Below, one piece after another: positions 32,195 to 59,812 of a stretch of 64,000 nt of DNA. Numbering within the stretch: position 1 is the first letter of the stretch; the number at the start of each line of letters is the position of its first letter. The translations under genes were made by a program, and so were the position numbers. The stretch comes from Candidatus Omnitrophota bacterium (GTDB lineage: Bacteria > Omnitrophota > Gorgyraeia > 2-01-FULL-45-10). Location: positions 3,977-67,976 of the forward strand of contig JBAZUO010000005.1 of NCBI GenBank assembly GCA_041661345.1. The letters are read 5' to 3'. The notes beneath the pieces were generated by a model. The model did no database searches. It was not told the DNA's origin and saw only the letters and a list, made by a program, of their open reading frames with translations.

Positions 32195-32233
32195 AACAAA
32201 AAGAGAACGCCCACCTGTTAAAAAGATGGGCGT
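32195..32233 (-). terminator. Terminator of tRNA-Asn
   Basis: Minus strand: AACGCCCA-(13 nt)-TGGGCGTT, then CTCTTTTTG. Starts 10 nt after the CCA end. Confidence 0.6.
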
Positions 32234-32242
32234 TTTCCTGTA

Positions 32243-32524
32243 GTGGCTCCCCCGCGAGGACTCGAACCTCGGACACTCTGGTTACGATCTGACTCCGATT
32301 ACTCGGAGAGTCGGACTATACCATTACCATGGCCTTTTTAAGGCTTTAGGCAGCGAGTCTCTAGTCTCTGCACCTTCCTCGAATCACTATGATCCGGGGC
32401 TTGGCTCAGGATTGACCCAATCGCTTGGGCTTTCCCTGAATTTACCCGCTTTTCACCGCGGCGTTTCCGTCGCAGGCTGCTAACCTCTAACAGCCAGATG
32501 CTCTACCGACTGAGCTACAGGGGA
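32243..32524 (-). tRNA. tRNA-Asn(GUU), split gene: exon 1 32524->32490 (35 nt), intron 32489->32284, exon 2 32283->32243 (41 nt, CCA encoded)
   Basis: The joined exons give UCCCCUG UA GCUC AGUCGGUA GAGC A UCUGG CUGUUAA CCAGA GUGUC CGAGG UUCGAGU CCUCG CGGGGGA G CCA. All four stems pair (one U.G), and the layout is almost that of E. coli tRNA-Asn. Confidence 0.9.
32284..32489 (-). ncRNA. Group I intron, IC3-like, 206 nt, no ORF
   Basis: P1: exon GGCUGU pairs with intron GCAGCC (U.G at the splice site). The terminal nucleotide is G. P3 AGCGGGU/ACUCGCU, P4 UCAGG/CCUGA, P5 GCCCAA[GCGA]UUGGGU, P8 GCCU[UAAAA]AGGC, P9 CUCCGA[GUAA]UCGGAG. The core GAAGGUGCAGAGACUAGA closely matches the Azoarcus tRNA-Ile intron as I recall it. 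Confidence 0.85.
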
Positions 32525-32624
32525 ACGATTTTAAAAAGAACTGCAAAAATTGTATCATACCTCCTATGGCTTTACAAACATTTTCCTTGTCGGAAGCTTC
32601 CCGTCCTTGATGAGGCGGGTTTAA

Positions 32625-35082: not shown

Positions 35083-35769
35083 ATGGGACAATATCACGGC
35101 AAAATAGATTGGGATAGAGTCAGGCTTAACCTGCTAAAGTACGAAAAGATTTGTAATGTCAAAAAGCCGTACGCTAAAAAATCGATATTGGCCTGTATTA
35201 ACAAATGCTTGAAATTGGCCAAATCCAGGGCCGTTCCAAAGATTATTGTTATCAAAAAGAGAATTGCGGGAATTGGCGCCTCGATCAGGCTTGATAGCGG
35301 ACTTGAGCTGTCGACAAGGCAGATATCCTCACTGTTAAAAGGTGCTTCCCATCTATATCTGATAGCGGTTACAATCGGCCCTAGCCTGGAAAAAACAGCA
35401 ACCGAGTATATGAACGAGGGCGATCTTCTGTGCGGATACATCATGGATAGAATCGGTTCGTTTGCCTGCGAATCGCTAGCCGAATTCGTCGAGGAGGATT
35501 TACGTAATGCCTGCATGTGTAAAGGGTTAAGCGTTTCGATGCGCTTCAGCCCCGGTTACTGTGATTTTCCGATAGAAGAGCAGTTCAAATTAAATAGAGA
35601 ACTTGATTTTTCGAAAATAGGGATTTCGATCAATAAAAGCTGCATGATGATACCTAAAAAATCGATAACCGCCATAGTGGGGATCGGGCCAAAAGGGCTA
35701 TTCAAAAAGAAAAGGTCTCAATGTCTTGTCTGCGGCAAAAAAGATTGTAGCTATAAAAGGCAGGATTAA
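35083..35769 (+). CDS. Stand-alone protein resembling the MetH (B12-dependent methionine synthase) activation/SAM-binding domain
   Basis: Start set to ATG at 35083 (MGQYHG...). RFSPGYCDFPIEEQFKLNRELDFSKIGISINKSCMMIPKKSITAIVGIG parallels the MetH reactivation domain (PGYP.CPD......L........G..LTES..M.P..SVSG). C-terminal CLVCGKKDC. Confidence 0.55.
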   Translation: MGQYHGKIDWDRVRLNLLKYEKICNVKKPYAKKSILACINKCLKLAKSRAVPKIIVIKKRIAGIGASIRLDSGLELSTRQISSLLKGASHLYLIAVTIGPSLEKTATEYMNEGDLLCGYIMDRIGSFACESLAEFVEEDLRNACMCKGLSVSMRFSPGYCDFPIEEQFKLNRELDFSKIGISINKSCMMIPKKSITAIVGIGPKGLFKKKRSQCLVCGKKDCSYKRQD

Positions 35770-36689
35770 ACCGGCTTTTCTTTCTTCAGAAGATCTTCCC
35801 AGTTCTTATCGGTAACTCTCTGTATATCGTCAAGCAAAGCCTTATTTTCGGGCCTAAAAAGGTGTCTAAATCTACTTTGCAGCTTCAACCACTCGGCAAC
35901 GGGCTTTTTCTCTTTCGGCTTGTACGTAATTCGGTATTGCCCGTCAACAACCTCGTAAAGCGGCCATGAACAAGTATCCGCCGCAAGCCTGCCCATTTCG
36001 CAGGTAAGCTCCGGCTTATATCCCCATCCGAGCCTGCATGGCTGAAACACGTTTATGAATTTCGGGCCTTCGATCGATAGAGCCTTCTCAACTTTTGAAG
36101 TGAGGTCGCGCCAGTTTCCTGCGATCGACTGCGCGGCGTAAGGTATGCCGTGAGCGACCATTATCGCGGTGAGGTCTTTCCTGTACTGTTCCTTGCCTTT
36201 TTTTACCTTACCGTAAGGCGCAGTTGTCGTATCCGCACCCATGGGTGTGGCGCCCGAACGCTGAACGCCGGTATTCATATACGCTTCATTGTTATAGCAT
36301 ATGTATAATATGTTATGCCCGCGCTCCATCGCGCCCGATAATGATTGTAGGCCTATATCGTAAGTACCGCCGTCTCCGCCGAAGGCAATAAAGTTAAGCT
36401 TCTTATTATACTTACCCTGCCTGACCCATGACTTGTACAAAGCCTCTACGCCGCTTACTGTTGCCCCGGAATTCTCAAAAGCGCTGTGAAGAAAAGGTAA
36501 GTTCCATGAAGTATACGGAAATATAGTTGAGATGACCTCGAGACATCCGGTGGCGCTTACCACAACGGTATTGGGGCCGGCCGCCATCAAAACCTGTCTG
36601 GCGATTATGACTGCGCCGCATCCGGCGCATGCGCGATGCCCGCCCGTAAATAATTCCTTGCTCTTTGCCAACTCTTTAAGGTTTGCCAT
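35766..36689 (-). CDS. porB: Pyruvate/2-oxoacid:ferredoxin oxidoreductase beta subunit (TPP-binding)
   Basis: 307 aa. GHRACAGCG, FGGDGGTYDIGLQSL (TPP GDG motif), YNNEAYMNTGVQRS. Confidence 0.9.
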   Translation of the reverse strand: MANLKELAKSKELFTGGHRACAGCGAVIIARQVLMAAGPNTVVVSATGCLEVISTIFPYTSWNLPFLHSAFENSGATVSGVEALYKSWVRQGKYNKKLNFIAFGGDGGTYDIGLQSLSGAMERGHNILYICYNNEAYMNTGVQRSGATPMGADTTTAPYGKVKKGKEQYRKDLTAIMVAHGIPYAAQSIAGNWRDLTSKVEKALSIEGPKFINVFQPCRLGWGYKPELTCEMGRLAADTCSWPLYEVVDGQYRITYKPKEKKPVAEWLKLQSRFRHLFRPENKALLDDIQRVTDKNWEDLLKKEKPV

Positions 36690-48893: not shown

Positions 48894-51806
48894 TTAAAAA
48901 TAGATCTTCACGTTGCCATTAACATTCTGGGCAACATATTTATACTGGCCAACCTGCGCCTGGTATTGGACGTTGAATAACACGGAATTGGTAAGCCTGA
49001 ATGCCATGCCGCAGCCTAATAGGCAAAAATCGGGAGACTTGTTTTCTCCCGTAGAGGTATTAAAAACCGATCCTGCTAATTTGGCCTCGATAGAACGGCT
49101 GTCATTCAGGAATTCATGCTGAAAAGATATATGCGCTTCCGGGAATAACACATGTTTATCTATTCTCAATTCGTACTCCGCCCTCCATCCGATACCAAAC
49201 TGGCACGATTGCGCATCCTGGGCCGACACATCCAGATCCAATGAATCCGCCCCGCTCTCGAGAAAACTGTCGATCCATAATTGCGAATATTTCATGGTCA
49301 GCGTGGGGCCGGTAACAAGGCTTTTTACGTGAAAATCGCATCCGGTGCCTCCGGCGATAGTCCACTGCTGACCGAACGGATTCGCCTTGGCGTTTCTATC
49401 AAGGCCGCCGAAATTTATCTTGCGGTCGGTGTGATAAATATTTGAAGCAAACTGCGCGGCGAGGTCAAGGTATAAAATTTTCCACGAATATGTTGAGTAA
49501 AGGCCGTATGAAATAGAGTCTATATCTATGCTGCCTCCCGCGCCGCCCAACGAAGAACTGGTCCTCAGATAACCTACATCCGCGCCCACTATGAGGCCGT
49601 TCAATAGTTTATAATCAAAACCCGCCGTAACTCCGCCGGACACATAGTCAAAACCCGGCTCATTGGTGAAGGCGCCCTGGTTTCCAAAATCTCCCTCGCC
49701 GTTTATAAAGAAACCAAATTTCTTATCCGTAGCGGCATGTGTATTGCTCTCGCGGGAAAACTTGGCCCAGTCATCGCCGTCGTAGGCTATCAATACGCGA
49801 TCCTGTTTCAATAGATTTCCGGCAAACGAACCGGTGAAGGTATTAAAGGACATGCCTCTCGGGATTCCGGTTCTCAGTTCTTCCATATGGCTCTGCAGAT
49901 TCGCGAATTGCATCGTGGCGCTCGTAAAAGCTATATTAGGAATACCACTCAATCTGTCGGGGGACGTTTGAGAATAGGCATCGGCAACCTGTGCGTTTGT
50001 GCTTAAACCATCTATGGCATTCTTGACGACCGCCAGATCTCCCGTAGCGGCGGGAAGCACGAGCTGCATAACCGAGGCGACATTCCTCTGGTTATCATTT
50101 AAAAATTGTCTGAGCGGATAATTGTCATAGTCGCGCGTAGCAACAAGATCGATATCGTCGCCGCCTACAAGAGGCTTCCATATTATAGTGGGCGTTATCG
50201 GCGTATCCAGTGTATCGAATGTACCAGTTACACCGCCGGTCGTCTGTATAAAATCGGTCAATACATCGCCGAGCGCATATGAACCGGTCGTTGTTGTTTT
50301 AAGCGTACCTCCCAGGGTAGCCGCGCCGATAATATTCATGCTCCCGTAATCTAAAACAAGCGAATTAACGTCAAGCTTTAATGCGGAAGTCGACGCTTGA
50401 GTATAGTCACCGGTGAATTCCAGTTGATCATTCGATAGATTCATGGCCCCTGAGGAAGTAAGGACTACATCTCCGGCAATCGCCCCCGCGCCGCTATTCG
50501 TTATGGTCGTAGTCCCGGACGCAATTTCCACTGCTGTAGCACCGCGGATCGTTCCGCTGTTAGTTATCGTTGTATCGCCGTTCACGATCTTCACCGCAGT
50601 GCCGGCGCCGACATCCCCTATAATTCCGGTAGCTGAATTGATAAGCTCATTTATTCCGGACGTTATCGGGGTGCCATAATCGGTACTGGTATCACCCATA
50701 AAAAGAATTCCAATATTATCTGTTCCGGCAATATTGTATTTATTGCGGGTTGTACCTGATATGGTACCGTTATTGGTGACTTTATAGTTCAGCGACCAGA
50801 CGAGAATGCCCTCACCGCCCGAGACAGATTGGCCGCTCGCTATAGTTATCGTGTTTGGAGAAGATGCGGAGCGGCTGACATTATTCTGAAAACTGTGACC
50901 GGCCCATAGAGTATCGCATGCGCCCGTAACATTAAAATTCGGAAAACCATTGCCGTATTGCGCATCTGCATCACTGCTAAAAGCGCCGTTCTTATTTTTC
51001 GTATATATATAGGATGCTGTTGAATAGATAGCGTAAATGGTAACAGGCGTCTGGCCCGGGAGTATAAACTCGGTCATCCCCTGTATCTGATCAAGCGTCA
51101 GGACCGGAGAGGCGCCGTTTCCCCAGAAATATGAATACCCCAACTGCGTCCACGGAAAAGTAGCGCCAGTAAGAGCCGATGCATACCAGGAAGCGTAATA
51201 ATCCTTAAAGTTCTTGTAAACTGTATCGCTCATGCCGGTAGGCTGTCGAAAAGGGAAATCCGTATCGGAATCGCCATACTGCGTGCGGTTATAGGTAGTC
51301 GCGTCGGGATTTTTCGACGGCCGCATTATATGGTTATTGTCCGCAGTTACCGCAAATTCTACTATCGCGTTGTGATATTTGGTAACATTGGTATATTCAT
51401 CCATACCTAATCCACGTTCCACGACATTTATGAGAGCGGTATTGGTGGTAATTCCGCCGTGATCTTTATAAAATTCGGTAAAATCATTACCTGTCGTTAC
51501 CCAGGTAGCGGATGCTGCAGGCTGGCCGTATATTGCATAATCTGCCTGGCCGACATAATTACTACTAAAGTTCGAAGACTTTGCCACGTTCCTAACTATC
51601 AGCTTGCCGCTTGAATTATATTGAAGGCCGTGCGTGTCACTGGAATTTATGCTTATTATGCTGCTGTCGGAGGCGCGCCAATCCGGAGGACCGGAAGGGT
51701 TCATGGCATTATCTATGGCTTGATTTATAGCCTGGCTGTAAGTTTCAGCCGCAAAGGTTGTGGAGCATGTAAAAAGGATCGCTAAAAATAATATAATTTT
51801 TTTCAT
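48894..51806 (-). CDS. Autotransporter: signal peptide, ~330-aa unassigned N-terminal domain, G/T/N-rich beta-helix passenger, C-terminal 12-strand-type barrel
   Basis: 970 aa. Signal MKKIILFLAILFTCSTTFA. Passenger repeats (TNSGTIRGATAVEIASGTTTITNSGAGAIAG). The C-terminal ~280 aa alternate and end ...NVNGNVKIYF (terminal Phe). Confidence 0.78.
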   Translation of the reverse strand: MKKIILFLAILFTCSTTFAAETYSQAINQAIDNAMNPSGPPDWRASDSSIISINSSDTHGLQYNSSGKLIVRNVAKSSNFSSNYVGQADYAIYGQPAASATWVTTGNDFTEFYKDHGGITTNTALINVVERGLGMDEYTNVTKYHNAIVEFAVTADNNHIMRPSKNPDATTYNRTQYGDSDTDFPFRQPTGMSDTVYKNFKDYYASWYASALTGATFPWTQLGYSYFWGNGASPVLTLDQIQGMTEFILPGQTPVTIYAIYSTASYIYTKNKNGAFSSDADAQYGNGFPNFNVTGACDTLWAGHSFQNNVSRSASSPNTITIASGQSVSGGEGILVWSLNYKVTNNGTISGTTRNKYNIAGTDNIGILFMGDTSTDYGTPITSGINELINSATGIIGDVGAGTAVKIVNGDTTITNSGTIRGATAVEIASGTTTITNSGAGAIAGDVVLTSSGAMNLSNDQLEFTGDYTQASTSALKLDVNSLVLDYGSMNIIGAATLGGTLKTTTTGSYALGDVLTDFIQTTGGVTGTFDTLDTPITPTIIWKPLVGGDDIDLVATRDYDNYPLRQFLNDNQRNVASVMQLVLPAATGDLAVVKNAIDGLSTNAQVADAYSQTSPDRLSGIPNIAFTSATMQFANLQSHMEELRTGIPRGMSFNTFTGSFAGNLLKQDRVLIAYDGDDWAKFSRESNTHAATDKKFGFFINGEGDFGNQGAFTNEPGFDYVSGGVTAGFDYKLLNGLIVGADVGYLRTSSSLGGAGGSIDIDSISYGLYSTYSWKILYLDLAAQFASNIYHTDRKINFGGLDRNAKANPFGQQWTIAGGTGCDFHVKSLVTGPTLTMKYSQLWIDSFLESGADSLDLDVSAQDAQSCQFGIGWRAEYELRIDKHVLFPEAHISFQHEFLNDSRSIEAKLAGSVFNTSTGENKSPDFCLLGCGMAFRLTNSVLFNVQYQAQVGQYKYVAQNVNGNVKIYF

Positions 51807-59721: not shown

Positions 59722-59812
59722 TGGCGGAGAGGGAGAGATTTGAACTCTCGAGACCTTTTGAGTCTACGCGCTTTCCAAGCGCGCGCCATAAACCGGACTA
59801 GGCGACCTCTCC
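59722..59812 (-). tRNA. tRNA-Ser(GGA), 91 nt, long variable arm, CCA encoded
   Basis: GGAGAGG UC GCCU...GGCG CGCGC UUGGAAA GCGCG UAGACUCAAAAGGUCUC GAGAG UUCAAAU CUCUC CCUCUCC G CCA. All stems pair. Confidence 0.9.

Follow-up and report, generated by a model that had tools for sequence, protein, structure and literature searches.

A compact group I intron splits the anticodon of a tRNA-Asn(GUU) gene in a probable Omnitrophota/PVC-like bacterium

A tRNA-Asn(GUU) gene in the stretch of DNA analyzed here (the window; 64,000 nucleotides) is interrupted within its anticodon by a group I intron of 205 nt. In all probability this is a functional, monocistronic tRNA gene whose transcript must lose the intron from between U35 and U36. 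The arrangement is known and common in uncultured bacteria; the window intron is a new member of the class, compact in form and in a new, Omnitrophota/PVC-like host lineage.

RESULTS

Structure of the split tRNA-Asn gene

The 5' exon carries the 5' strand of the acceptor stem, the D arm, the 5' strand of the anticodon stem, and C32, U33, G34, and U35, and the 3' exon supplies U36, A37, and A38, the 3' strand of the anticodon stem, the variable loop, the T arm, the 3' strand of the acceptor stem, G73, and an encoded CCA (Table 1). When the exons are joined, ARAGORN returns a 76-nt tRNA-Asn(gtt) with a canonical cloverleaf, in agreement with the initial annotation of this DNA, which had proposed a tRNA-Asn(GUU) split inside its anticodon. 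The interruption lies between U35 and U36 (GU/U), and the gene is thus of the Asn 35/36 class. The first nucleotide of the intron is U (32489), and the last is omegaG at 32285, a terminal G that the initial annotation had recognized and that is invariant in the 11-sequence alignment described below. The earlier coordinates of the 5' exon were exact, but those of the 3' exon (32283 to 32243) omitted U36 and took one extra base past CCA; the exon runs from 32284 to 32244, and the intron length, previously given as 206 nt, is corrected to 205 nt (32489 to 32285). Some 24 nt separate the end of the promoter-like site from position 1 of the tRNA, and because this site and a terminator-like hairpin flank the gene, the split tRNA-Asn looks like a stand-alone transcription unit.

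Table 1. Features of the split tRNA-Asn(GUU) gene and its intron, in window coordinates
Feature	Position	Strand	Description and basis
Promoter-like site	32549..32577	minus	TTGTAA-17 nt-TACAAT with extended -10 TG; consensus scan, putative function
tRNA-Asn(GUU) 5' exon, 35 nt	32490..32524	minus	TCCCCTGTAGCTCAGTCGGTAGAGCATCTGGCTGT; ARAGORN on joined exons
P1 hairpin	32475..32495	minus	exon GGCUGU (32495-32490) and intron UA pair with guide UAGCAGCC (32482-32475)
Group I intron, 205 nt, ORF-less	32285..32489	minus	RF00028; covariation; 205-nt gap against intronless homologs
P2 hairpin	32457..32474	minus	GAAA tetraloop; one A.C mismatch; 7/7 pairs compensatory, 97% of cells paired
P3 5' strand	32445..32449	minus	GCGGG; pairs with 32357-32353
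P4-P5 domain	32405..32440	minus	P4 UUCAGGG/UCCUGAG, J4/5 AAA, P5 loop GCGA, J5/4 CAA
P6/P6a hairpin	32373..32404	minus	variable region; outer pairs supported; inner helix poorly aligned, 69% paired
P7 5' strand	32362..32368	minus	G-(A bulge)-GACUA; pairs with 32318-32313; pseudoknot with P3
P3 3' strand	32353..32357	minus	CUCGC; 4 nt after P7, no P7.1/P7.2 insertion
P8 hairpin	32325..32352	minus	CCUAAA...CAUGG; outer pairs covary
P7 3' strand	32313..32318	minus	UAGUCC; 11-sequence alignment
P9.0 and P9 hairpin	32286..32312	minus	P9.0 GA/UC (2 bp); GUAA loop; 6/6 P9 pairs covary; ends just 5' of omegaG
tRNA-Asn(GUU) 3' exon, 41 nt	32244..32284	minus	TAACCAGAGTGTCCGAGGTTCGAGTCCTCGCGGGGGAGCCA; ARAGORN; intronless homologs
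Intrinsic-terminator-like hairpin	32206..32234	minus	11 bp, then a T-rich tract; sequence scan

Standard annotation does not recover this gene. Default ARAGORN reported no tRNA at the locus, the Rfam scan of the whole window listed none there, and ARAGORN in intron mode (-i) placed the 205-nt intron of the precursor at 33/34 and named the tRNA Thr(cgt). The same whole-window Rfam list also lacks a tRNA-Ser(GGA) that ARAGORN finds at 59722-59812 on the minus strand and that a local scan with RF00005 scores at 51.9 bits; its absence from the large scan is a filter loss and not a biological oddity.

The intron has a conserved group I fold

A search with RF00028 (Intron_gpI), as the initial annotation had advised, matched positions 32499..32292 of the minus strand over the full model (1-253) with 79.5 bits (E=1.4e-18), well above the gathering score of 50 bits, and identifies a group I intron. 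The element contains no ORF, as had been noted, with 0 open frames on the sense strand.

We drew helices P1 to P9 on the window intron and tested them on an 11-sequence MAFFT alignment of this intron and ten homologs from other genomes. Across P1-P9, 90.3% of cells are paired and 41 of the 62 pairs show compensatory changes; the choice of sequences by similarity and the drawing of the structure on the window sequence favor the first of these measures but not the second. None of 500 shuffles reaches any of five measures, and sliding the 3' partners by 1-3 columns leaves 32-46% of cells paired. RNAalifold, run without a supplied structure, recovers P1, P2, P3, P4, P5, the outer part of P8, and P9, while the P7 pseudoknot lies beyond its predictions. 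The P1, P3, P4, and P7 pairings proposed earlier are all present, P3 in its inner part only, and the loops L2 GAAA, L5 GCGA, and L9 GUAA are as originally described.

The wobble between U35 (32490) and G (32480) in P1, the mark of the 5' splice site, is UG in 11/11 sequences. The other five exon-guide pairs also hold in 11/11, four of them invariant and one appearing as GC in seven and GU in four, which upholds the pairing of GGCUGU with GCAGCC at intron nt 10-15 that had been read from the window alone. Directly 5' of this guide, GGUUA (32485-32481) could pair with UAACC of the 3' exon to form P10, as judged from sequence complementarity, and 8/11 relatives retain GUUA.

P3 had been given seven base pairs, and comparison supports part of it: four of the inner five pairs have compensatory changes and the fifth is an invariant G-C, but the two outer pairs are not kept in relatives. 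The outermost A-U fails in 5/11 sequences, and its U instead covaries as an extra pair of P8 (UA in six, CG in five). P4 is 93.5% paired, and covariation is seen in five of the six P5 pairs. No element of the family is more conserved than P7, which is 98.5% paired, and because it is nearly invariant, covariation neither backs nor contradicts it. By analogy with the Azoarcus structure, P7 is the putative guanosine-binding helix. The P8 motif appears, from its sequence, to resemble the 11-nt GAAA-tetraloop receptor. In the window intron, one A.C mismatch lies in P2 and one in the inner part of P8, and the position beneath the putative receptor platform of P8 is A/C.

Close relatives carry the same tRNA gene without the intron

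A metagenome scan for the predicted ligated exon junction returned many uninterrupted tRNA-Asn genes. Two of these (L134 and L227) are 76/76 identical to the joined exons, and a third (L191) differs at two mutually compensating positions of the T stem. The sole large difference between the window locus and these three genes is one gap between GGCTGT and TAACC, and because it measures exactly 205 nt, it fixes the omegaG boundary independently. L134 (4992-5124), L227, and L191 each have a terminator hairpin, GCCCAT...ATGGGC, similar to that of the window, 3' of tRNA-Asn. The flanks adjoining the tRNA in L134 are 84-88% identical to those in the window, and this contig also shares with the window a POR-beta gene (85% amino acid identity) and the MetB12-like gene, about 8 kb away. 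Since its exons, flanks, and neighbors all match, closely related organisms have intron-bearing and intron-free forms of the same tRNA gene, and the window locus provides a clean case of such a pair with identical exons.

Distribution and gene neighborhood

We searched one genome per GTDB species with a degenerate pattern that combined the tRNA-Asn 5' exon, a non-tRNA continuation, and a GCAGCY guide. At least 119 loci match, and at least 89, from many phyla, hold a complete split tRNA-Asn according to a script that required omegaG, pairing of the anticodon stem, and the presence of both a T loop and an acceptor stem; the search for the same insertion in relatives that the initial annotation had recommended is thus positive. 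By record label, these complete split loci comprise at least 24 Patescibacteria, 7 Binatia, 7 Nitrospirota, 6 Omnitrophota, and 5 Gammaproteobacteria MAGs, together with at least 8 "delta-proteobacterial" MAGs and, counted apart, at least 2 RIFCSP "Deltaproteobacteria" MAGs. Bdellovibrionota, Gemmatimonadota, Bipolaricaulota, Cyanobacteriota, Chloroflexota, Christensenella, and others are also among the matches listed.

RF00028 was passed by 16 of the 17 split tRNA-Asn loci tested, with 62-109 bits. Among the matches listed, 87 of 89 split loci have 27-30 nt between the P7 3' strand (AGUCC) and the end of the intron, and the P7-to-P7' distance distinguishes a compact group (about 41-55 nt) from a long group (58-123 nt) with extra hairpins between P7 and P3'. 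The window intron is one of the compact ones, like its two closest relatives among the matches listed, which measure 44 nt each. The introns nearest to it in that set come from L037, an Omnitrophota MAG (full-length identity 83%), and from L087 (80% by BLAST). The 5' half of the window intron has significant BLAST matches to many of the long Asn introns. By sequence comparison, the window intron is a member of a widespread homologous family of tRNA-Asn 35/36 introns.

POR-alpha and POR-beta genes lie 3-5 kb from tRNA-Asn in the window and are also found near the split tRNA-Asn in L037, L034, L087, L090, and L063, at 48-85% amino acid identity. The nearest relatives among the matches listed are Omnitrophota/PVC-labeled MAGs with conserved gene order; to judge by these record titles, the DNA most likely comes from an Omnitrophota/PVC-like anaerobe. 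A 4.2-kb Logan contig (SRR18595301) is 100% identical to the window over the upstream genes and the intron. All eight pattern matches in IMG/VR contigs (L121-L128) hold a complete tRNA-Asn(GUU) split at 35/36, with introns of 183-229 nt, and three of these contigs share one identical 183-nt Asn intron.

Several further observations were made in these sequences. The POR-beta/TPP gene of the window (35766-36689) has a homolog in L034 (5125-7134) that tblastn finds in two pieces of 85-88% identity that are about 1.1 kb apart and join at residue 139; an insertion, an intein, and an assembly problem are candidate explanations, and the gap gave no group I or group II Rfam match. An ORF of 970 aa at 48894-51806 of the window (minus strand) ends in an autotransporter beta-domain (Pfam PF03797, E=2e-52) at its C terminus, which implies a diderm host and fits a PVC/Omnitrophota-like organism. 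In the "Pacearchaeota"-labeled L044 (7340-7612), tRNA-Asn holds a group I intron of bacterial type (81.5 bits), and because the intron is of this type, the contig is probably a mis-binned bacterial one; Williams 2020 (bioRxiv 10.1101/2020.01.27.920355) notes a similar case. Other archaeal-labeled loci (L012, L015, L024, L026, L027, L043, L072, and L076) continue from GGCTGT into AGTGG and have no group-I-style 3' exon, and their introns are probably protein spliced.

DISCUSSION

Proposed splicing of the tRNA-Asn transcript

This analysis shows how the intron folds, where it begins and ends, which tRNA it interrupts, and how widely it occurs; we infer catalysis in this copy from its anatomy and the standard group I pathway. 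Nucleotides 32485-32475 make up the guide GGUUA-GCAGCC, which is complementary to GGCUGU/UAACC of the ligated anticodon arm. In the precursor, GCAGCC of the guide would pair with exon GGCUGU, and the adjoining UA with the first two nucleotides of the intron, to form P1 with U35.G at the cleavage site. An exogenous guanosine bound in P7 would then attack 3' of U35. The 3' exon UAACC would displace the intron's UA, its first nucleotides being identical, from the guide to form P10. With omegaG (32285) then docked in the G site, the 3'-OH left free on U35 would attack 3' of omegaG, ligating GU to U and yielding a 76-nt tRNA with its encoded CCA. Docking of L2 GAAA on the receptor-like P8 motif, together with L9 GUAA, probably braces the compact P3-P8 core and its P3/P7 pseudoknot. 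The L2 GAAA that faces CCUAAA...CAUGG of P8 presumably resembles the tetraloop-receptor pair of Azoarcus.

Alternative readings of the locus

The A.C mismatches in P2 and inner P8 would suit a decaying, non-splicing insertion that has left a tRNA pseudogene, the work being done by an intact tRNA-Asn elsewhere, but none of the core helices is broken and the conserved junctions are kept. With 64 kb of the genome visible, a second, intronless tRNA-Asn is possible; were the split gene the only one, splicing would be essential. The lineage can do without the intron, since the gene is intronless in close relatives whose exons are identical. The exons, however, are 76/76 identical to functional-looking intronless genes, and promoter-like and terminator-like sites are present. 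Moreover, the split gene is kept in a conserved neighborhood in hosts that share 48-85% protein identity, with compensatory substitutions in the intron; these two facts together indicate purifying selection on the fold. We therefore regard decay as very unlikely.

The call that ARAGORN -i makes on the precursor, a tRNA-Thr(CGU) gene with a 33/34 intron, was rejected and has a negligible chance of being correct. That boundary would make the intron end in U and thus leave no omegaG, the invariant P1 U.G wobble sits at U35 and not at U33, and the tRNA body matches uninterrupted tRNA-Asn(GTT) genes at 76/76 positions; exactly such a two-base-shift miscall by ARAGORN and tFind has been documented (PMC13011429). 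With the gene read as tRNA-Asn(GUU), its omission or mislabeling as tRNA-Thr means that genomes of this lineage would seem to be without tRNA-Asn unless the intron is modeled. An assembly chimera or contaminating fragment is scarcely credible either, even though the source appears to be a metagenomic assembly, given an independent Logan assembly (SRR18595301) with 100% identity to both the intron and the upstream genes, and several related MAGs with the same gene order and split tRNA.

Possible exchange among Asn introns

The window intron, L037, L087, and L034 show 100% identity in their closing 34 nt, which run from the P7 3' strand to omegaG (32318-32285), whereas the P3-P6 regions of the window and L034 are 35% identical, though their POR-beta proteins are about 85% identical. 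Considered with the empty-site relatives and the IMG/VR copies, this mosaic pattern would fit recombination between Asn introns or their transfer; it could also arise if P9 is strongly constrained while the rest of the intron drifts rapidly. Tentatively, and with the balance somewhat against it, the compact "IC3-like" and long "IA1-like" Asn introns might be one site-bound lineage that has gained or lost P7.1/P7.2 and that may also be mobile without a homing endonuclease. Mobility is suggested by the difference in intron presence between close relatives with identical exons, by the contrast between the identical 3' ends and the divergent P3-P6 in hosts about 85% identical in a neighboring protein, and by the split tRNA-Asn of the IMG/VR contigs, putatively viral, which could shuttle the intron. 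If the lineage is indeed single, subgroup labels do not track ancestry.

Relation to described tRNA introns

The initial annotation considered an intron at GU/U of tRNA-Asn to be undescribed, and this claim falls because Asn(GUU) 35/36 introns are already catalogued, the very finding that it had named as removing the novelty. According to Williams 2020 (bioRxiv 10.1101/2020.01.27.920355), the four classical intron/tRNA settings have been expanded to 21, and the class "Asn.4Ug" (Asn 35/36) comes from the tFind survey of that preprint, as cited in PMC13011429. Nakagawa et al. (2026) reported 15 tRNA-Asn 35/36 introns in complete Patescibacteria genomes and showed that a 35/36 intron from tRNA-Asn and another from tRNA-Asp splice themselves precisely in vitro (PMC13011429). 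Among 4,934 complete genomes, they counted 28 introns at 35/36, of which 25 were labeled IA, with representatives also in Cyanobacteriota, Nitrospirota, Bipolaricaulota, Pseudomonadota, and one Bacillota_A genome (PMC13011429). The exact window intron is absent from the accessible portion of Table S5 of PMC13011429, where a string search returned only other Asn introns, and our literature search found no description of tRNA introns in Omnitrophota specifically. The present locus opens no new question but adds to the described class an Omnitrophota/PVC-like host and a minimal, 205-nt ribozyme of Azoarcus size.

Subgroup and comparison with named introns

In the Michel-Westhof scheme, the IC3 architecture has P2, lacks P2.1, P5abc, and P7.1/P7.2, and ends with P9.0 and a short P9 domain. 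The window intron has this architecture, with 4 nt between P7 and P3', 0 nt between P3' and P8, no P5abc, and a single P9; the IA-type P7.1/P7.2 hairpins between P7 and P3', which are present in the long Asn introns, are absent from it. The earlier label "IC3-like" therefore fits the architecture, but sequence similarity does not separate this intron from tRNA introns labeled "IA1": in comparison with published labeled introns, the best BLAST or global identities are 64% to an "IA1" Ile2 intron, 60% to an "IA1" Asn intron, and 50-58% to "IC3" introns. A subgroup call based on similarity to these labeled introns was uninformative, and because the sequence is about equally close to both, "IC3" is used here as a description of shape and not of lineage.

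The tRNA-Ile(CAU) IC3 intron of Azoarcus sp. BH72 is the classic minimal group I ribozyme. Its likeness to the window intron extends to about the same length and the same order of domains: P2 with GAAA, P4-P6, P3-P7-P8 without P7.1/P7.2, a CCUAA-type P8, and P9.0 with a single P9. The junction strings AAAUUC, CAAUCC, GCCAAGCC, GAAGGUG, AGAGACUAGA, and UAGUCC are common to both, and BLAST of the window intron against Azoarcus gave 65% identity over 146 nt, a figure to be taken as a lead and not as a test. The Azoarcus intron differs in its host tRNA (tRNA-Ile), in its site (36/37), and in a P1 with three exon nucleotides (CAU) compared with six here; its L9 is GAAA, compared with GUAA in the window intron.

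The cyanobacterial and plastid tRNA-Leu(UAA) IC3 introns likewise interrupt the anticodon loop of a bacterial tRNA, are ORF-less, and have a very similar core sequence, and an Acidobacteriota Leu intron labeled IC3 is 57% identical to the window intron globally. Unlike the latter, tRNA-Leu(UAA) introns sit at 34/35 and have a longer, two-hairpin 3' domain after P7.

The Patescibacteria Asn 35/36 introns (PMC13011429) share with the window intron the host tRNA, the GU/U site, U-1, and omegaG, as well as the same tool failure, in which tRNA-Asn is missed or called tRNA-Thr 33/34. They are mostly 220-350 nt in the sample, have extra P7-P3' hairpins, are classed as IA, and in some cases have homing endonucleases, whereas the window intron has 205 nt, no P7-P3' insertion, no ORF, and an Omnitrophota/PVC-like host. 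In Table S5 of PMC13011429, the Asn 35/36 intron of GCA_022846035.1 (Bacillota_A) is comparable in size (210 nt versus 205) and is classed as IC3. It has the same site, the TTAGCAGCC guide, a GAAA-capped P2, and no P7-P3' insertion, but differs in an overall identity of about 58%, a long insertion in the P1 loop, another P9 region, and another host phylum.
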